Shown: positions 6,994 through 12,769 of the stretch, piece after piece
Layout of the letters: every line of letters starts with the position of its first letter
How positions within the stretch are numbered: position 1 is the stretch's first letter
From: a virus
Taxonomy: Duplodnaviria; Caudoviricetes
Length of the DNA: 35,854 nucleotides
Virus record (IMG/VR): IMGVR_UViG_3300033406_000367
Location: 1 to 35,854 of that record
Reading direction: 5' to 3' (one strand)
Translations under genes and position numbers: made by a program
The notes under the pieces: generated by a model
Database searches by the model: none
What the model saw: only the letters and a program-made list of their open reading frames with translations
What the model was told of the DNA's origin: nothing

Positions 6994-7030
6994 GATTCCC
7001 TCCGTTTGCGTTGTTTTGCTGCTGGAGTGA

Positions 7031-7073
7031 ATAATAGGATGACTAATATTAGTGAGTCAATAGCCCGACTGAT
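7031..7073 (-). promoter_or_regulatory. PL promoter with two operators (OL)
   Basis: Minus strand TTGACT (7060-7055), 18 bp spacer, TATTAT (7036-7031). Operators AATAGGATGACTAAT (7033-7047) and AATAGCCCGACTGAT (7059-7073) resemble the OR sites. Confidence 0.8.
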
Positions 7074-7090
7074 ATTTTTTCATTGAACGC

Positions 7091-7112
7091 AAAAAATCCG
7101 CCCAGCTGGCGG
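7091..7112 (-). terminator. Rho-independent terminator facing left, upstream of PL
   Basis: Minus strand CCGCC-AGCTG-GGCGG-ATTTTTT. Confidence 0.6.
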
Positions 7113-7203
7113 CTGATCGGAACGGCTGGTCTTTCCGATGACGCCGCTTGATACGCGGCGCCATGATGTTGTAATCTAGTCGGGCGATCTGCATGGCATG
7201 CAA

Positions 7204-7235
7204 TCGTAACGCGCACTCTTTCAATCGCGTTACGA
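7204..7235. repeat. Perfect 10-bp inverted repeat abutting the recombinase RBS
   Basis: TCGTAACGCG-(12 nt)-CGCGTTACGA; the right arm overlaps GAGGA. Confidence 0.85.
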
Positions 7236-7246
7236 GGACCGCCACC

Positions 7247-7921
7247 ATGACCAAGCGTGCAGCCGTTTTACTGCCGTCGCAACTTCGCCATCTACTTCGC
7301 GTCACCGAAGCAACAAGCCGCCACCCCGAACGGGATGTGCTGATTCTGTGGCTCGGCTTCTCCTGCGGTATGCGCGTCACAGAAACCGCCCGCCTGACCG
7401 TCGCCGACGTTCTGCATCCATCGGGCCGACTGCGCAGCGAAATCAGCCTGCGCGCCGAGATTACCAAGGGCTGCCGGCAGCGCCTGGCCTACCTGACCAA
7501 CCCGAAGCTAATTGCCGCAATGGACCGGTACATAGAGTGGCGCAATGCCAAGCGCTTCGGTTGCTCGCTAGATGGCCGGCAGTATCGCGGCCTGATGCCA
7601 GCGACCAAGCTAATCCTGACGTGGAAGGGTGGCCCCTACGAACTCAATACGAAGCGGGCCAGGAACGCGGCCGGCGAGGTTGTCGAGTACCTGGCGGCCG
7701 ACAGCTTGCAGACTTACATCAAGGGACTGTACCGCGCTGCGGGCCTATTCGATGCCTCAAGCCACTCTGGCCGGCGCACGTTCGCATCCAGGCTCATGGC
7801 GGCAGGCGAATCGCTTGAAACCGTACAGGCGCTGCTCGGCCATGCCGAACTCGATCACGTCATGCCCTATCTGGAAGTCAATCCCGCAACGATGCGAGAA
7901 ATGTTCGCCGAGGTGCTATGA
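7247..7921 (+). CDS. Short (224 aa) tyrosine recombinase, catalytic domain only
   Basis: R (GMRVTE), K (TKG), HxxR (HSGRR), H (LGH) and Y (VMPY) are all present. No N-terminal core-binding domain. GAGGA RBS before ATG 7247. Confidence 0.9.
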   Translation: MTKRAAVLLPSQLRHLLRVTEATSRHPERDVLILWLGFSCGMRVTETARLTVADVLHPSGRLRSEISLRAEITKGCRQRLAYLTNPKLIAAMDRYIEWRNAKRFGCSLDGRQYRGLMPATKLILTWKGGPYELNTKRARNAAGEVVEYLAADSLQTYIKGLYRAAGLFDASSHSGRRTFASRLMAAGESLETVQALLGHAELDHVMPYLEVNPATMREMFAEVL

Positions 7922-7940
7922 TGAAACATTGGTGTTTCAT
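7921..7940. repeat. Palindromic site A
   Basis: ATGAAACA-TTGG-TGTTTCAT, perfect 8-bp arms. Confidence 0.8.
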
Positions 7941-7969
7941 ATGGCGCATGGAAGATGGAGATAGCAACG

Positions 7970-8158
7970 ATGTACGGCGAAGACGCTCAAGCAATCAGGA
8001 AACAGTGCGGACTGACGCAGAGCGAGCTTGGCCTGCTCTGGCGAAAAAGCCGTGTTCAGATCGGCCGGTACGAGAAGGCGCAGCAGGCCGTGGAGCCGCA
8101 AGTTGCGTCTGCTTATCGCGGATTGGCTGCTGAATTATCGAAAAGAAATGCAACATAG
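7970..8158 (+). CDS. XRE-family HTH regulator (62 aa)
   Basis: IRKQCGLTQSELGLLWRKSRVQIGRYEK; GGAG RBS at 7957-7960. Confidence 0.8.
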   Translation: MYGEDAQAIRKQCGLTQSELGLLWRKSRVQIGRYEKAQQAVEPQVASAYRGLAAELSKRNAT

Positions 8159-8167
8159 GTGTTGCGT
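8148..8167. repeat. Palindromic site B, related to site A
   Basis: ATGCAACA-TAGG-TGTTGCGT; 16/20 identical to site A. Confidence 0.8.
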
Positions 8168-8190
8168 TAATGATTCACCAGTGATACATT
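8162..8190 (+). promoter_or_regulatory. Sigma70-type promoter upstream of the small-gene array
   Basis: TTGCGT (8162-8167), 17 bp spacer, TACATT (8185-8190), with extended -10 TG at 8182-8183. Confidence 0.65.
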
Positions 8191-8237
8191 AGAGTCACTA
8201 AAGAAGCATTAACGCAACCAACAAAGGAAAACGCACC

Positions 8238-8522
8238 ATGAAAATCTCTCTGCAAAAGTTGTTGGTCATTCGCCAGCGCGATTTCAATGTCCTGAACCGT
8301 GCATTTTCGGAAGGCCTTGGTGAGCGCTACATGGACCCTGAGTATTCGCTGACGCGGGAAGATGCCAAAAAGGTCGCAGTCGTGATTGAGCGCCTGGCTG
8401 ACGACGCAGACAAAGATGAAGGAATGTTCCCGCTGACGCCTGACCAGAAATGGCAAGCCATCACCGAAGTCAATCAGGCCGCCGAAGCGTTCCGTAGCCT
8501 GCTGGCTGATTTTGATCTGTAG
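8238..8522 (+). CDS. Array gene 1: acidic hypothetical protein (94 aa)
   Basis: ORF preceded by AAGGAAAA. Confidence 0.75.
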   Translation: MKISLQKLLVIRQRDFNVLNRAFSEGLGERYMDPEYSLTREDAKKVAVVIERLADDADKDEGMFPLTPDQKWQAITEVNQAAEAFRSLLADFDL

Positions 8523-8538
8523 CCCAAGGAAAACGACC

Positions 8539-8733
8539 ATGCCGGCCAAAACTCTTCAAGAGCGACAGGTTGACGCAGATGTTCGCTGCCGCCACTGGCT
8601 TGCCTTGGCGACGGACGCGAACGAAGCGGGCGACAGGGCCAAAGCAGAGCGGTGTGAAGACAAAGCGCGATTCTGGAATGATCGATGGAATCATCTGTGC
8701 GGCCGTGGCGAACGCCCGGCGCCGAAAGAATAG
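8539..8733 (+). CDS. Array gene 2: hypothetical protein (64 aa)
   Basis: MPAKTLQERQ..., preceded by AAGGAAAA. Confidence 0.7.
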   Translation: MPAKTLQERQVDADVRCRHWLALATDANEAGDRAKAERCEDKARFWNDRWNHLCGRGERPAPKE

Positions 8734-8744
8734 GAAAACGGACT

Positions 8745-8954
8745 GTGGAAGCCGAACTGACAAAGAGCGAACGTAATCAGATCGCCGAGATTCTCAATCG
8801 CAGAGCCAATGAGATTGCCGGTTTCAGCGGAGACTACAGAAAAGAAGGCAATCACTTCGGCAGCGTAGAGCTTGCGCTGACCCGAGAAATTGAGCGTCTT
8901 CGCCGACTGGCAGAGCGGGTAAGCCCGCATGAGCCTGAAGACGATGGCGACTAA
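8745..8954 (+). CDS. Array gene 3: hypothetical protein (69 aa, GTG start)
   Basis: VEAELTKSERNQIAEIL..., preceded by TAGGAAAA. Confidence 0.7.
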   Translation: MEAELTKSERNQIAEILNRRANEIAGFSGDYRKEGNHFGSVELALTREIERLRRLAERVSPHEPEDDGD

Positions 8955-8972
8955 CAAGGAAAAGGAACCGGC

Positions 8973-9320
8973 ATGAACAAGCAAGAATTTGTTGCGCAAG
9001 AGGTTGCGAAGAACAAGTCAACATTCGGGCGCTGGCACTCGACAAGAAAACGAGACTCGGCTGAACCAATGAAATTGATGTTCGAGCCTGCTCCGAGAAA
9101 CGAACTTGAAGCATTGCAGCATGGCAACGCGCTGGCGAATACCGGAAACTATCCGGTAGGGACAAGCGAGTGTTTCAACGTCGGCATCTCAGGAGGTTGC
9201 GGGCCGGATTGCTTTGTGTATCGCAAGGGTGAATGCGGAGAGCCGCAGGAGATGCTACCCGGACTCGATTCTGACGGCCTGAAACTGCACGCAGAGCTAT
9301 ACGGACCTTACGTTAAGTAA
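8973..9320 (+). CDS. Array gene 4: hypothetical protein with Cys cluster (115 aa)
   Basis: ECFNVGISGGCGPDCFVYRKGEC; preceded by AAGGAAAAGGAAC. Confidence 0.7.
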   Translation: MNKQEFVAQEVAKNKSTFGRWHSTRKRDSAEPMKLMFEPAPRNELEALQHGNALANTGNYPVGTSECFNVGISGGCGPDCFVYRKGECGEPQEMLPGLDSDGLKLHAELYGPYVK

Positions 9321-9336
9321 ACGCCACGGAAAAGAC

Positions 9337-9525
9337 ATGAGCCGCAAATGTTCAGGTTGTCAGCACTTCCAAAAAATGCGCCACTTGGCCGGCAACTCTG
9401 GGCTGTGTTTGTTGCGCGATGGGCGGGTCGACGAAGACGGCGGCTGCCAGCTCTGGAAAGCCATCCCATTTGACCGGGCCGCCGACAAAAAACGCGTTCA
9501 ATCCGAGTTGGCGCAACCTGAATAG
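9337..9525 (+). CDS. Array gene 5: small Cys-rich protein (62 aa)
   Basis: CSGCQHF...GLC...GC pattern; preceded by ACGGAAAA. Confidence 0.7.
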   Translation: MSRKCSGCQHFQKMRHLAGNSGLCLLRDGRVDEDGGCQLWKAIPFDRAADKKRVQSELAQPE

Positions 9526-9546
9526 GAAAAGGGGAATGAAAACGCG

Positions 9547-9747
9547 ATGTTGAAAGAACGTTTTTTAGCTGCGGTTGGTATCAAAACGCTGACCGCTCAG
9601 GTGACGGAGCATTGCAAGTCGCTCGGGTGGCCGGATGATGCTGCGAATGAAGCGGCCACGGACGCCGTTAGGCTTGCACAGGGCAACGAGGCTCTGAACC
9701 CAACAGCGCTCCATGAAGTGCTTAGCGAAGTTTGCCGAACCGCATAA
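9547..9747 (+). CDS. Array gene 6: hypothetical protein (66 aa)
   Basis: ORF preceded by TAGGAAAAGGGGAA. Confidence 0.6.
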   Translation: MLKERFLAAVGIKTLTAQVTEHCKSLGWPDDAANEAATDAVRLAQGNEALNPTALHEVLSEVCRTA

Positions 9748-9768
9748 CGCATAGGAAAATGAAGGAAC

Positions 9769-10506
9769 GTGACAAAGAAACAAGATCTATATCCTCTTCC
9801 GGGGTTTCCGAAAGAGAGCAAATTCACAAATCTCGGCGATGTGTCTGAGTATTTGCACGGAGAAAAGATCACCTGTTTGATTTGCGGCAGATCCTATAAG
9901 GCACTAACCGGACACATCAGCAAGCACGGAATTAGCTCCGATGAATACAAAGAGCGATTTGGCCTTCCGTTCAGGACTGGCTTAACAAGCCAAGGAACAA
10001 AGGCAAAAAACAAAGAGAATGGCGATAAAAACGTGCTTCGTCTTGGCGTCATGCGATCAATGATTGATCGTGCAGCGCAGAGTGCAGCCACAAAAACACA
10101 AAGAACAAGCGCAGCAAAGGTTCTTCAGTCAAAGATAAATGTTTCTAAAGCACCAGTTTCCGAATCTCCTTTTTCCATTGGAGATGCCATCGCTATTTTT
10201 AAGCACATGGTTGATTTCAATGTCTCGTTAAACAGTGCAGTAAAGGCGACTGGAATTATGGGAATGACCGCCTTCTGGAAGATGCTTAGTAGGCATCCGG
10301 AAGAACTCATTCCAGAATACGAGGAAGCTCGGTCGCGGGTATCAAAAGGAAGAACCAATCCTTTGATTAAGATTCAAGACGTAATAGCCGATGTTCGAGG
10401 GCAGCGATTGGCCGGTGTTCCACGGGGCGTAATAGCTGAGAAGTATGGAATACATGTCGAATATGTCTCAATCCTTGAGCGCGGTTACGACAAGCGAAAT
10501 AGATAA
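9769..10506 (+). CDS. Array gene 7: Ros/MucR-like zinc-finger protein with C-terminal HTH-like segments
   Basis: ITCLICGRSYKALTGHISKHGISSDEYKERFGLP matches the Ros/MucR finger. GTG start. Visibly AT-richer than its neighbours. Confidence 0.7.
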   Translation: MTKKQDLYPLPGFPKESKFTNLGDVSEYLHGEKITCLICGRSYKALTGHISKHGISSDEYKERFGLPFRTGLTSQGTKAKNKENGDKNVLRLGVMRSMIDRAAQSAATKTQRTSAAKVLQSKINVSKAPVSESPFSIGDAIAIFKHMVDFNVSLNSAVKATGIMGMTAFWKMLSRHPEELIPEYEEARSRVSKGRTNPLIKIQDVIADVRGQRLAGVPRGVIAEKYGIHVEYVSILERGYDKRNR

Positions 10507-10520
10507 GAAAAGGAACGACC

Positions 10521-11000
10521 ATGGGATTGGATTGCTCTCACAACGCTTGGCATGGTGCATACGGCGCGTTTATGCGGTGGCGAAAGATGCTGGCGGAAGT
10601 GGCCGGATTGCCGCCTCTTGAGCTGATGGATGGGTTCTACTCCAAACTGGGCAGCAAAGGCCCGGGAATACCGACTCTGTATCACGGGATTAATACAAAC
10701 GAGCCTGCTTTTGGTCATGAATCTCGGCCGCACCTGGCGGAAATTGATGACCATCTGCCGATCCAGTGGGATTGCTTAAAGCCTAGCCCGCTCCATGAGT
10801 TGCTTTACCACAGTGATTGCGATGGCGAAATTGCAGCCGAGAACTGCGGACCGATTGCTGACGCGCTTGAAGCGCTCATTCCGCTTCTTCCAGATGAGCA
10901 AGCCGGTGGACACATTTGTCATTGGCGCGAAAAGACACAACAGTTCGTTGATGGCCTTCGGGCTGCTGCTGCTGCCGGCGAAGCGCTTGATTTTCACTAG
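10521..11000 (+). CDS. Array gene 8: hypothetical protein (159 aa)
   Basis: MGLD...LLYHSDCDGEI pattern; preceded by TAAGAAAAGGAAC. Confidence 0.75.
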   Translation: MGLDCSHNAWHGAYGAFMRWRKMLAEVAGLPPLELMDGFYSKLGSKGPGIPTLYHGINTNEPAFGHESRPHLAEIDDHLPIQWDCLKPSPLHELLYHSDCDGEIAAENCGPIADALEALIPLLPDEQAGGHICHWREKTQQFVDGLRAAAAAGEALDFH

Positions 11001-11026
11001 CAACTAACACCACGGAAAAGAACGCC

Positions 11027-11206
11027 ATGATTTTTGACGACATGCGTCGGGAGGTGAAGGAGTTGCTGGCCCTGGTCCGCAAGGATGAGCAGTATTGCGC
11101 TGCGGTGATGTCGGGAGAAGTTGATCCGAGCGCCGAGGCCGTTGCCGAGCATGTCCGCCGCGCCACTCGCATTGCTGAACTCACTGACCACTACGGTCTG
11201 CGCTAA
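11027..11206 (+). CDS. Array gene 9: hypothetical protein (59 aa, absent from the ORF track)
   Basis: Manual translation MIFDDMRREVKELLALVRKDEQYCAAVMSGEVDPSAEAVAEHVRRATRIAELTDHYGLR; fills the gap between two GGAAAA motifs. Confidence 0.7.
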   Translation: MIFDDMRREVKELLALVRKDEQYCAAVMSGEVDPSAEAVAEHVRRATRIAELTDHYGLR

Positions 11207-11224
11207 CCAGGAAAAGGAACGGTG

Positions 11225-11479
11225 ATGGAATGGCAACCGATTGAAACTGCGCCGAAGGACGGGACTCTGTTCCTAGGATGGGTTGGCGCAGAGAGGTGGA
11301 GTAGCCCTGACGGCGAATGCTCAAGCTGCGCGCATGACGTATCGCAAGTTGATTTTTGTTGGTGGCGCGCGGCGCATGAGTCAACAGAAGGCGGGTTCTT
11401 TGATAATTCATCTGGCCAGATAGGCGATGCGCAAGACGTAACCCACTGGATGCCACTGCCGGCACCGCCTTCTAACTGA
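11225..11479 (+). CDS. Array gene 10: DUF551-like phage protein
   Basis: WQPIETAPKDG...VTHWMPLPAPP signature. Confidence 0.8.
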   Translation: MEWQPIETAPKDGTLFLGWVGAERWSSPDGECSSCAHDVSQVDFCWWRAAHESTEGGFFDNSSGQIGDAQDVTHWMPLPAPPSN

Positions 11480-11493
11480 CTAGGAAAATGATC

Positions 11494-11763
11494 ATGGCTG
11501 ACCTTCACCTGAACCTGAAAGGCGAATACTTCGACCAGATCAAAGCCGGTACGAAGCTGTTTGAATTTCGCCTGGTGTCGAAGTGGGCAAAACGCCTTGA
11601 AGGAAAGTCATTCGACCGAATTTTCATCAAGCGCGGATATCCGAAAACCGGCGATACCGAACGGATCATTGAACGACCATGGCGCGGCTTTGAGTTACAG
11701 ACGCGAATGCACCCGCACTTTGGCCCTGATCCGGTTGAAGTCTTCGCAATCCGCGTCAATTGA
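11494..11763 (+). CDS. Array gene 11: ASCH/PUA-like domain protein
   Basis: LHLNLKGEYFDQIKAGTKLFEFR (GxKxxExR motif). Confidence 0.8.
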   Translation: MADLHLNLKGEYFDQIKAGTKLFEFRLVSKWAKRLEGKSFDRIFIKRGYPKTGDTERIIERPWRGFELQTRMHPHFGPDPVEVFAIRVN

Positions 11764-11787
11764 ACAGAAGGTAAAACGCGAAATCAC

Positions 11788-11819
11788 AGCCCGGCGTCCT
11801 CACGGATAGCCGGGCTTTT
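11788..11819 (+). terminator. Terminator closing the array
   Basis: AGCCCGGC-gTCCtcacGGAta-GCCGGGCT-TTT. Confidence 0.65.
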
Positions 11820-11821
11820 AA

Positions 11822-12085
11822 ATGGCAACTATGACTAAGGTTATAATTCTGCCAATGAGACGACGCGGCCCATACGCAATCAATGCAGTACGTTCAACCG
11901 AAACGGCACAAGTTCTTCGCGAACTAGCCGACCTCGCCGAACGCGGGGAGGTAATTGGTATAGCATATGTTGCAATCCGTCCGAATCGAAAAGTCATTGC
12001 CGCAACCGCTGGCGTTGCTACCGCCGATCCTCCACTAGTGACGCACTGGCTTGCAAAGCTGTCCCATGTTCTACTTGAATCCTAA
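11822..12085 (+). CDS. Hypothetical protein convergent with cI
   Basis: 87 aa ORF containing VLRELADLAERGEVIGIAYV; start uncertain. Confidence 0.6.
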   Translation: MATMTKVIILPMRRRGPYAINAVRSTETAQVLRELADLAERGEVIGIAYVAIRPNRKVIAATAGVATADPPLVTHWLAKLSHVLLES

Positions 12086-12160
12086 AAAGCAAACGGCAGG
12101 CTTCCACCCCGCCGTCTCCGCGCGCAGCCACTGCAAACCCAAGAAGTTTGCCCCGCCGGA

Positions 12161-12769
12161 TCATTGCTCTCCCTCAGCCCGCTTTCGCGGGTTTTTTTTT
12201 GCATCCGGCGCATCGCTATCAATTAGTAGGTGACCAAGAAATCGATTCGACGATGGGGAGGATTCTGCCACCACTACCGGTTTTCCGGTATTAGACGAAC
12301 GGCATAGTTTGCCGGATATTTCAGATTCTACAGCGCGCTCATTTGGCACCAGATCGGAATAGTCGAGGCCAAAGGCTTTCAGCACGCCACTCACCGCCGC
12401 CTTGATCTGTGCATAAGTAACGGACGGCACTTCATTGGAAACAGAAGGCGGCGCAGACAGTGATCTTGATAGCACCCTGTTGGCGGCCGTTGCCTTTATC
12501 GAGCCAGAAATCACCATTGTCGACGCAAGCGATGGGCTTATTTCCGCCGGATCAACTTCCATCGCTTCGGAAAACTTGCACAGCGCCGGAAGATTGAGCG
12601 GGATTTTCCCGTTCATGTACTGGCTGACCGTTCCCTGCGTTTTCCATCCGCAAGCCTCGGCAAGCGACTCCTGGGTCAGATTCTTGTGACTTTTCTTCTC
12701 GCGGATAAAGACGGCTTTCAGTCTTTCTGCGTCGGCGAGTTGCTCTTCAGTTAGTGGTTGTGCTGGCAT
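12161..12769 (-). CDS. cI: CI-like repressor (lambda-CI-type N-terminal HTH, no recognisable S24 peptidase domain)
   Basis: PLTEEQLADAERLKAVF...LTQESLAEACGWKTQGTVSQYMNGKIPLN...EISPSLA closely parallels the lambda CI N-domain; divergent from cro. Confidence 0.85.
   Translation of the reverse strand: MPAQPLTEEQLADAERLKAVFIREKKSHKNLTQESLAEACGWKTQGTVSQYMNGKIPLNLPALCKFSEAMEVDPAEISPSLASTMVISGSIKATAANRVLSRSLSAPPSVSNEVPSVTYAQIKAAVSGVLKAFGLDYSDLVPNERAVESEISGKLCRSSNTGKPVVVAESSPSSNRFLGHLLIDSDAPDAKKNPRKRAEGEQ

Follow-up and report, generated by a model that had tools for sequence, protein, structure and literature searches.

What is the purpose of the short word that stands at every gene junction of a phage array? 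The phage DNA analysed here (IMG/VR record IMGVR_UViG_3300033406_000367; the whole 35,854-nt stretch is called the window, and it entered the family comparison as locus L004) carries eleven small genes on one strand, separated by GGAAAA or a near variant. The first-pass annotation had read this word as the core or scar of a crossover, with a shared translational-control site as the alternative. The array consists of the following features.

8226..8231, + strand: junction site 1, GGAAAA; homology with L156 stops here
8238..8522, + strand: cassette gene 1, 94 aa
8528..8533, + strand: junction site 2, GGAAAA
8539..8733, + strand: cassette gene 2, 64 aa
8733..8738, + strand: junction site 3, GGAAAA, overlapping the TAG stop
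8745..8954, + strand: cassette gene 3, 69 aa
8958..8963, + strand: junction site 4, GGAAAA
8973..9320, + strand: cassette gene 4, 115 aa
9328..9333, + strand: junction site 5, GGAAAA
9337..9525, + strand: cassette gene 5, 62 aa, Cys-rich
9525..9530, + strand: junction site 6, GGAAAA, overlapping the TAG stop
9547..9747, + strand: cassette gene 6, 66 aa
9754..9759, + strand: junction site 7, GGAAAA
9769..10506, + strand: cassette gene 7, 245 aa, ROS/MucR domain; unit of lowest GC (0.45)
10506..10511, + strand: junction site 8, variant AGAAAA, overlapping the TAA stop
10521..11000, + strand: cassette gene 8, 159 aa, phrog_11026
11014..11019, + strand: junction site 9, GGAAAA
11027..11206, + strand: cassette gene 9, 59 aa
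11210..11215, + strand: junction site 10, GGAAAA
11225..11479, + strand: cassette gene 10, 84 aa, DUF551
11483..11488, + strand: junction site 11, GGAAAA
11494..11763, + strand: cassette gene 11, 89 aa, phrog_625 (annotated as RNA-binding protein on plasmids)
11770..11776, + strand: last junction, variant GGTAAAA
11788..11819, + strand: predicted array terminator, hairpin and T run (direct reading; common to L244)

All ten exact copies reported earlier (8226, 8528, 8733, 8958, 9328, 9525, 9754, 11014, 11210 and 11483) were found, as were the variants AGAAAA at 10506 and GGTAAAA at 11770, 3' of the last gene. Direct reading bore out the second Shine-Dalgarno-like words at 8964, 9531, 9764, 10512 and 11216, and the overlap of the upstream stop codon with the motif at 8731, 9523 and 10504. 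TAAC, which had been described as a further junction element, is not supported as such: it is exact at only 5 of 12 junctions, four of these being the upstream TAA stop followed by C, and the family profile (315 sites) contains little information upstream of GGAAA. In the window's array, the word ends 3–16 nt before each start. No long repeats were found at the window junctions, and the five junctions that were folded form no hairpin and fold no better than shuffles.

On the + strand, 10 copies of GGAAAA lie in the 3,555-nt array, compared with 13 in the remaining 32,299 nt. An exact copy is located at most 35 nt upstream of the start in 10 of the 11 array genes, versus none of 43 other window starts, and the 5-mer GGAAA precedes 3 of those 43 (array versus other window genes, Fisher p = 5e-10 and 1e-7; the 43 comparison starts were hand-picked from the ORF list, and one is wrongly oriented). 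Window-wide, the hexamer is only mildly over-represented (33 copies against 22.0 ± 4.6 in shuffles); the signal is its position. Only three boundary observations bear directly on the window. The match to the Aromatoleum EbN1 plasmid locus L156 runs no further than the final A of the first GGAAAA (8231); phage L244 has an extra 60-nt unit between two motif variants at the junction matching 11770; and a 36% homologue of cassette gene 9 in a Cupriavidus array (L045) likewise ends before GGAAAA. Homologues of window genes in ordinary phage operons are without the word, among them an 86% homologue of cassette gene 8 that has no motif at either end (L241).

Which protein might act at these sites? 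The region upstream of the array contains a candidate, together with its presumed control elements.

7116..7139, + strand: left site; the inverted junction word TTTCC at 7132-7136 is the right arm of an 8-8-8 dyad
7148..7177, + strand: predicted recombinase promoter (-35 at 7148-7153, -10 at 7172-7177; read by eye)
7203..7236, + strand: leader dyad, with arms resembling those of the left site and overlapping the recombinase RBS
7247..7921, + strand: tyrosine recombinase, 224 aa, catalytic domain only (domain matches, homologue alignment)
7921..7940, + strand: perfect 8-4-8 palindrome (direct reading)
7970..8158, + strand: HTH protein, 62 aa (domain matches)
8162..8190, + strand: predicted array promoter (-35 at 8162-8167, 17 nt, -10 at 8185-8190; read by eye)

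The 224-aa protein contains a PF00589 domain with the catalytic R-K-H-R-H/W-Y set, which places it in the tyrosine recombinase superfamily, and residues R43, K74, H173, R176, H199 and Y208 are invariant in 25 homologues. Its alignment begins at residue 106 of IntI4 and at about residue 114 of XerD, indicating that the N-terminal core-binding domain is missing. A structure model of low confidence (pLDDT 60) matches IntI4, Cre and Xer, IntI4 being the only solved structure that matches in one stretch. The -10 positions of the recombinase promoter are conserved in alignment A2 and the array promoter region is conserved in L005 and L156; a consensus scan lists neither promoter. We predict that the palindrome is the operator of the HTH protein and that this protein represses the array promoter, which is overlapped by a 6-of-8 look-alike of the palindrome (8170-8189). 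Homologues of the HTH protein, 82–89% identical, hold the same place in L005 and L156. The leader dyad is a predicted accessory or autoregulatory binding site; no compensatory changes were seen in it among 19 Burkholderiaceae leaders. Similar arms flank the recombinase's own promoter and RBS, and in SPbeta-like phages a protein with an integrase-like fold serves as a repressor, according to the available portion of 10.1101/2025.11.27.690993. It is conceivable from these features that the protein is a DNA-binding regulator with GGAAA as its operator along the operon. However, the catalytic residues are invariant and a regulator leaves the breakpoints at the word, described below, unexplained; we give this idea hardly any credence.

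Relatives of the recombinase are found on plasmids and chromosomes from Rhodocyclales to Vibrio, with the same layout as in the window: an inverted TTTCC site, the recombinase, a regulator or toxin-antitoxin pair, and a GGAAA-jointed array. The family comprises 849 protein clusters at E ≤ 1e-20, and occurs on 139 PLSDB plasmids at E ≤ 1e-30 and in 17 of 400 genomes of one family sample. The largest arrays have up to 35 sites in 17 kb. At L023, the cassettes are inverted relative to the recombinase. No recombinase of the family was found near arrays L257, L225 and L187 within the 7–13 kb stretches covered. Across 69 loci, including the window, 192 junction-type GGAAA sites lie downstream on the recombinase strand in 259 kb (0.74/kb), compared with 6, 6 and 2 in the other three strand and side classes and 0.05/kb in 80 RecT-phage control loci. 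Among the 43 loci with 5 kb of downstream sequence, 40 have at least one such site and 26 at least three; three have none. With independent annotation, GGAAA is present at 88 of 122 array junctions.

These counts bear on the alternative that the word is a shared translation signal (an A-rich Shine-Dalgarno sequence with stop-restart coupling) at which RecT/Red or other microhomology exchange happens to fall, with the recombinase as a passenger. GGA belongs to the Shine-Dalgarno sequence, the word is often at the corresponding distance from the start, as in the window, the phage encodes RecE/RecT, and GGAAA also occurs at 9 of 33 neighbouring control junctions (p = 4e-6 against the array junctions). 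However, the word keeps to a single strand downstream of this one recombinase family on plasmids, chromosomes and a phage, and is rare at the junctions of the RecT-phage loci. Among 26 gaps of at least 40 nt, 18 have the first motif closer to the upstream stop; in 20 it lies over 20 nt from the following start, and 13 of these 20 contain a separate Shine-Dalgarno sequence. Because it remains by the upstream stop in most long gaps, the word must be more than a ribosome-binding site. It also bounds 8-nt units and units in which no gene is called, and it recurs in inverted form at the module boundary, a place where no gene begins. We consider a translation signal alone an improbable explanation.

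If the word is a crossover point, homology between arrays should break there. Of 152 alignment edges between arrays, 53 coincide with the motif in each of the two sequences (null 1.5 ± 1.2, never above 5 in 300) and 99 lie away from it; with each edge counted once, 40 of 92 are at the motif, and at ≥90% identity 30 of 46. Mismatch drops from 61–89% to near zero across the word in pairs that open there (n = 18) and rises from near zero to high within 2 nt of it in pairs that close (n = 27). In B. glumae BGR1, plasmid 1 carries three units in the order A-B-C; on plasmid 4, units 97–99.9% identical to them follow the order A-C-B, every break being at GGAAAAC except one at GGAGAAC. Units with the motif at both ends occur as exact duplicates within arrays L155, L159, L164, L172 and L188. 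Several related array pairs diverge at the first junction, and changes also occur deep in arrays. By these alignments, segments running from GGAAA to GGAAA are the units that move between arrays, are copied within arrays and are reordered, with breaks at the word. We looked for a word equally common before ordinary genes and for homology boundaries that do not coincide with it, and found neither: the motif is enriched at array genes over other window starts, neighbouring junctions and control loci, and boundaries coincide with it in the family and in the window. As an account of the places at which exchange took place, the crossover-core reading is therefore supported. The adjacent recombinase as the agent of these exchanges, acting on the junction words, is our own inference and did not feature in the first-pass annotation.

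Our preferred reading, to which we assign a probability of roughly 0.7, is that GGAAA(A) is the crossover point for cassette exchange, duplication and reordering, with cutting likely carried out by the minimal upstream tyrosine recombinase: an integron-like platform with a 5–7-bp word and no attC hairpins. The enzyme would bind the word as a single half-site and cut at its 3' edge. Two junctions in direct orientation would then recombine, needing about 2 nt of identity after GGAAA. Among 20 re-joined pairs, 16 agree at base +0 after GGAAA (11.2 expected; p = 0.008) and 13 at base +1 (8.8 expected; p = 0.035), with no excess at +2 (4 of 20) and no run of six shared bases after the word. Recombination would release a circle of one or more cassettes, which could then integrate at any of the remaining junctions, whether in cis or on a second replicon. 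A single strand exchange resolved by replication would explain both the copies left behind and the absence of a 6-bp coupling sequence. One regulated promoter would drive the whole array, and each re-joined gene would keep a usable start because the word resembles a Shine-Dalgarno sequence. This likeness may also provide the first route by which ordinary phage or plasmid genes are recruited. Against this reading, a non-palindromic word of 5–7 bp turns up by chance every few kb, and neither a second half-site (350 family junctions) nor a hairpin (five window junctions) was found that would confine recombination to the arrays.

It is probably through the left site that the module can move or invert as a whole. 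In 69 of 78 representative loci a TTTCC-type motif was picked about 100–130 nt upstream of the recombinase, and conservation falls to its left. L010 and L020 share an identical 150-nt flank and only 73–76% identity from TTTTCC onward, and in several other locus comparisons the same left flank is followed by different content from the motif onward. A P. syringae-group flank continues into an element, into the suffix of a related array without left site or recombinase (L187), or into an inverted array end (L225, and likewise L226 and L227). In these comparisons one inverted copy of the word marks the left boundary of the module, and the window's left site is likely its left end. The arms of this site (7116-7123 and 7132-7139) are 7/8 complementary; the dyad with spacer 8 is present in the window's clade and absent from 53 other loci. 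In that clade the left site reads GGAAAG and the junctions GGAAAA. Co-variation between left site and junction word, with kinship ignored, is weak (-1, p = 0.003; -2, p = 0.012; +1, p = 0.095), and at +2 the match is below chance.

An inverted copy at a sharp boundary is also what a Tn916-like transposon would have: one left end (TTTTCC) used in every event, and stacked alternative right ends (GGAAAA). The element would lengthen by taking in adjacent DNA as far as the next GGAAA, and shuffling would arise when it inserted into other arrays and then lost its front part. L187 resembles such a loss of left site, recombinase and front cassettes, L179 contains, between two motifs, 89 nt that look like the insertion flank in reverse complement, and Tn1549 and CTnDOT need merely 1–2 nt of identity (available text of PMC5871717). 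However, A-B-C against A-C-B and the non-adjacent duplicates would take several steps, where the preferred model needs one circle; the re-joined pairs are without the six-base run; L179 and L188 share both ends and differ in their interiors; and tandem GGAAA-N-TTTCC junctions are only at chance level in 64 left flanks (one perfect, spacer 8). As an account of the arrays this is unlikely, and it may describe movement of the whole module.

In a shufflon-like system, the recombinase would invert the DNA from the left site to any one of the array sites, in the way FimB or Rci act between inverted repeats, and order changes would result from successive inversions. FimB-type invertases are short tyrosine recombinases, comparable in size to the 224-aa enzyme. 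The left site and the array sites are mutually inverted, and L225, L226, L227 and the cassettes of L023 show inverted arrangements. Inversion does not, however, copy units; inverted junction-type sites are at background (2 in 209 kb upstream, 6 in 259 kb downstream), and left-site neighbours match junctions at chance at +1 and worse than chance at +2. We regard it as very improbable.

How does this proposed platform relate to known systems? The pdif modules rely on host XerCD, which acts at dyads of 28 bp; the PeSLs of T4-type phages are long repeats that carry promoters and are not known to have a dedicated recombinase. In both, short repeated junctions likewise make genes modular. Two dif-like half-sites around a 6–8-bp spacer are absent at the family junctions compared here, the only dyad being at the left site in the window's clade. 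Integrons, as described in the accessible parts of PMC8946536 and PMC8138268, likewise place a tyrosine recombinase beside one promoter (here predicted by eye) and a co-oriented array of small genes, with units exchanged, duplicated and reordered, and with orphan arrays. However, integrons use attC sites, imperfect palindromes that fold into hairpins as single strands, whereas the family site is 5–7 bp without a dyad at junctions; the recombinase here is upstream of and co-oriented with the array; the conserved site is inverted and upstream of the recombinase; and the enzyme lacks the core-binding domain that IntI has beside its catalytic domain. In integrons, new cassettes enter at attI, between integrase and array; here, the first junction is the point at which several related pairs diverge, the conserved site lies elsewhere, and changes deep in arrays occur as well. 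No second half-site was found at any spacing in 350 family junctions. The recombinase scores 38.8 bits against the integron integrase model TIGR02249 (cut-off 265) and forms a clade (97/89) separate from two IntI-like rows in a 40-row tree; it carries an insertion at the position of the IntI-specific one. With no attC hairpin, no second half-site and an enzyme that is not IntI, we rejected identity with integrons.

Tn916/Tn1549 and CTnDOT likewise have outward-facing inverted end words (compare TTTCC on the left and the putative right-type GGAAA), many insertion sites and 1–2 nt of joint identity; the excerpted account in PMC5871717 gives them 11-bp ends, a 5–7-nt coupling region and a large integrase. 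Here, in contrast, one left site faces many right-type sites of 5–7 bp, and internal units move alone. No 5–7-nt coupling sequence was seen, identity ending at +1 in the re-joined pairs, and no arm- or core-binding integrase domains, excisionase, conjugation or mobilisation genes were found at the examined loci. SE-6945/SE-6283 (PMC9345347) and GInts (PMC5385486) are tyrosine-recombinase elements in which one strand is copied out and the donor stays intact, resembling what we propose for the cassettes; the available portions of these papers describe four core genes, two recombinases and a single element boundary, and no internal cassette array. FimB/FimE and the multi-site Rci shufflon (Rci: PMC8138268, in part) likewise use short or core-binding-poor recombinases on short sites, but invert fixed segments, whereas array sites here are all direct and gene content is open-ended; apart from isolated inverted cases, no segments were found in both orientations. 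A literature search found no description of such a system.

The integron is the textbook case of a gene-cassette platform driven by a recombinase, and the neat exchange of small accessory phage and plasmid genes at gene boundaries is largely an open question. The locus would probably be a gene-shuffling system akin to integrons but assembled from other components; its family is common and lacks the IntI and attC features that integron finders seek. If a recombinase without a core-binding domain can pair such short sites, the requirements for a tyrosine-recombinase site would also change. More tentatively, and at slightly less than even odds, the family may capture genes widely across Proteobacteria: a stand-alone catalytic domain would work on single 5–7-bp half-sites that double as RBSs, recruit ordinary phage and plasmid genes at natural RBS boundaries, shuffle and copy them via circles within and between replicons, and move the whole module via one dyad left site. 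On that reading, no smaller site for cassette shuffling by a tyrosine recombinase would be known, and the mosaicism of accessory genes in plasmids and phages would have a concrete mechanism. The arrays are also a mineable stock of small genes without known function. For one B. glumae array, 14 full-length copies among the matches listed (of 52 records, ≥80% cover) are 99.9–100% identical, indicating that shuffling is rare in that lineage.

The window holds a P22-like temperate phage, with integrase, excisionase, RecE/RecT, cI, cro, cII, terminase, and P22-type portal and coat genes. A rightward block lies between its leftward promoter and cI:

near 7030-7060, minus strand: leftward promoter; a sequence within it (7060) has a second copy between cI and cro (12830)
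7247-7921, plus strand: tyrosine recombinase, 224 aa
between recombinase and array, plus strand: HTH gene, 62 aa
8238-11763, plus strand: eleven small genes, then a terminator-like hairpin

The motif GGAAA(A), here called the word, stands at the junctions of these small genes and delimits units of 196-752 nt. Re-reading the sequence confirmed every motif coordinate in the first-pass annotation, and its link between motif and array is borne out: exact GGAAAA stands before 10 of the 11 array genes and before none of the 43 other starts (Fisher p 5e-10). The TAAC element that it placed, exact or as a near variant, upstream at most junctions fared less well, being exact at 5 of 12 and mostly a stop codon followed by C; for this reason TAAC was rejected as an integron-like inverse core. 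Where homologues of window genes 8 and 11 sit in ordinary phage operons, their ribosome-binding sites are of the usual kind and the word is missing at both ends. The match between the window and the Aromatoleum EbN1 plasmid locus stops at 8231, at the motif. Another phage locus (L244) shares the window's last array gene (94%) and its terminator, with 60 extra nt between two word variants. PADLOC gave no defence annotation for cassette genes (0 of 12).

We also note the position of the whole module (7076-12160), between the leftward promoter and cI and opposed to the early leftward operon, the slot occupied by rex in lambda. A solitary rightward gene at 11855-12085 (76 aa) has its own TATAAT promoter and terminator (11822-12120) and no relatives among viral contigs. 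For the 202-aa cI-like repressor (12161-12769), the Pfam matches cover the HTH only, with none for a peptidase domain. A search for a version of the window phage with an empty site found none.

The recombinase matches 849 protein clusters at E <= 1e-20 and, at E <= 1e-30, 139 plasmids in PLSDB. Loci were drawn from metagenomes, GTDB genomes, viral contigs and PLSDB (28 plasmid regions in total, chosen by eye). After removal of other recombinases (L001-L003, L042, L043, L069-L072) and 19 near-duplicates, the family set comprised 78 loci, including the window's own. The matches of two further scans were dropped: those from scanning viral contigs with the single protein were 3 spurious ones of 24 residues, and those of a leader-pattern scan were 11 chance matches, none with the recombinase. 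Annotated loci share a layout in which a regulator or toxin-antitoxin pair comes after the recombinase, and a row of small co-oriented genes after that. Junction-type GGAAA occurs downstream 192 times on the recombinase strand and 6 times on the opposite strand in 259 kb, upstream 6 and 2 times on the two strands in 209 kb, and 55 times in 1,087 kb of control sequence (80 RecT-phage loci). By NCBI annotation, GGAAA is present in 88 of 122 array junctions versus 9 of 33 neighbouring ones. Of the 43 loci that extend 5 kb downstream, three lack junction-type sites altogether.

The first-pass annotation proposed to check whether homology ends at the motif, and in the family homology boundaries do coincide with the word. 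Comparison of 79 downstream regions gave 92 alignments (100 nt or longer, identity 80% or higher). Of their 152 internal edges, 53 lie at the word in both sequences (-6 to +14 nt), compared with 1.5 +/- 1.2 for random homologous positions. With each edge counted once the figure is 40 of 92, and 30 of 46 at 90% identity or more. Among the edges elsewhere are regulator-module ends, gene starts and tandem repeats. The transition is abrupt: across 18 opening pairs, most mismatch values are 61-89% through the base preceding GGAAA and ~7% well past it, and in 27 closing pairs it leaps to ~80% at the third base past GGAAA.

Units flanked by the word on either side recur far apart inside L155, L159, L164, L172 and L188 (94-99.5% identical); within-array duplicates in L190 and L185 have one matching end. 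B. glumae BGR1 has the unit order A-B-C behind the recombinase on plasmid 1 and A-C-B on plasmid 4. The copies are 97-99.9% identical, and the breaks fall at GGAAAAC, in one case at GGAGAAC. This change of order would be the outcome of a two-unit circle re-entering via its internal junction. Units A and B are each found alone, word-bounded, on plasmids from a different strain and a different species. Among the matches listed, the 14 B. glumae copies that cover one array in full length are 99.9-100% identical, which speaks against strong activity. Judged by these sequence comparisons, the motif is real and is a crossover point. We infer, at a probability of roughly 0.7, that the exchange of cassettes, junction by junction, is the work of the adjacent recombinase family.

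Could the word be only a ribosome-binding site? In short gaps, those of the window included, it probably doubles as one. Across the 26 annotated gaps that contain the word and measure 40 nt or more, the first copy is closer to the upstream stop in 18 and lies more than 20 nt before the next start in 20, of which 13 have a separate SD. The word also bounds units without a called gene, as well as 8-nt units. It is thus more than a ribosome-binding site, as the first-pass annotation had suspected.

Alignment of the recombinase begins at IntI4 residue 106 and XerD residue about 114, and the protein therefore has no core-binding domain. R43, K74, H173, R176, H199 and Y208 are invariant across 25 aligned homologues. 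It has an insertion at the same position as that of IntI, and scores far under the integron-integrase cut-off. A tree of 40 rows, 23 of them from the family, groups the members in a clade of their own (97/89), separate from two IntI-like rows; its outgroup branches are long, and it includes none of the short FimB-like proteins. The structure model is weak (pLDDT 60) and carries little weight. The closest named relatives of the recombinase are in Aromatoleum and Azonexus (82-85%), and the phage host is therefore probably a Rhodocyclales bacterium. No GenBank phage record matched at E 1e-15; 29 distant ones matched at 1e-8 with ~31% identity, and the phiCbK-like records H257-H271 (Caulobacter and Brevundimonas phages) have short tyrosine recombinases ~31% identical across the whole query. 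A distant subfamily (~33% identical) comprises L178, L191:3194-3856, L259:3587-4246, L202, L208 and L088:20005; L178, L191 and L259 have the same left word and GGAAA arrays, and the L088 member sits in a RecT phage.

Re-joined pairs share the two bases past GGAAA in 16 and 13 of 20 cases, versus 11.2 and 8.8 expected, with no clear sharing beyond. This is consistent with a mechanism in which the enzyme would cut where a single half-site ends and ligation would need ~2 nt of pairing. Passages of PMC5871717 give ~2 nt for CTnDOT and 1 nt for Tn1549. The single exchange would be resolved by replication, which is described for integrons in parts of PMC8946536. A 6-bp coupling sequence was not seen in re-joined pairs, and a partner half-site at junctions or in left flanks was found at chance level only. 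The 5 window junctions folded hold no attC-like hairpins, and no known RNAs lie at junctions (one Rfam match, E 0.72, outside the array).

The left end is marked by an inverted, TTTCC-type word ~100-130 nt upstream of the recombinase start in 69 of 78 loci; 9 have no scorable left end, the picks for L028, L040 and L041 are doubtful, and that for L031 was revised. Its consensus is (T)TTTCCGAGGA, with conservation falling off to the left. L010 and L020 share an identical 150-nt flank and are 73-76% identical from TTTTCC onward. In the window clade, an 8-8-8 left dyad is present in 8 of 11 loci at 5/8 matches or more (7/8 in the window, 7116-7139), versus 3 of 53 loci outside it. A second dyad, over the recombinase ribosome-binding site, has arms similar to those of the left site. 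The leader as a structured guide RNA was rejected on 19 Burkholderiaceae sequences, none of 5 predicted pairs having a compensatory change; in the window clade, where the hairpin folds at z -2.4, it may yet be one. Left site and junctions show suggestive co-variation in Acidovorax, Shewanella, Vibrio and Pseudomonas, but it is weak across the family and does not appear in the window clade.

Two insertion hotspots were seen, one 3' of an SOS-response-associated peptidase gene in P. syringae-group plasmids (L179:6705-6884) and one upstream of a divergent gene in Paraburkholderia (left flank of L169). Both are occupied by differing elements. The P. syringae-group flank is followed by an element in L179, L189, L192, L193 and, with a different recombinase, L191; by a 99%-identical internal L179 cassette, without left site or recombinase, in L187; and by an inverted array end in L225. 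At the Paraburkholderia hotspot, several loci keep TTTTCC without the recombinase, so it may partly belong to the insertion target. For the candidate empty sites (L224, the first copy in L188, L204, L209-L215), no right flank could be paired.

The system would work like an integron, yet membership tests place it outside integrons, and outside Tn916-like transposons and shufflons as well. Passages of two tyrosine-recombinase surveys (PMC3414803, PMC8138268) contain no catalytic-only family with cassette arrays; SE elements and ILEs are described as multi-gene elements in parts of PMC9345347 and PMC4542609, respectively. A literature search, mostly outside subscription journals, returned no description of the system, whose members may be listed under another label in the supplementary tables of the two surveys.

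Several arrays have features of their own. Minimal units, with two GGAAA 8 nt apart, recur in Burkholderia (L157:17251-17264; L257:6256-6269 and 7508-7521; L259:6538-6551). In L023, cassette-like units with GGAAAA junctions are inverted relative to the recombinase, one of which matches a unit in forward orientation in L038 at 98% identity. Many Pseudomonas units open with a related 60-100-nt non-coding leader containing a GC-rich hairpin (L179:8518-8608, 9159-9250, 9622-9700 and 9904-9990; also L186 and L190). In five plasmid-like Rhodocyclales-clade loci, other small genes, upstream of the recombinase, have a second motif at their junctions, stop-AAA-N(2-6)-GTTACGA (L007:350-640, L008:850-1085, L009:4059-4640, L031:4570-4812, L155:9450-11530). 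Its right part is identical to the arm of the leader dyad, and the motif may represent another kind of array or an operator.
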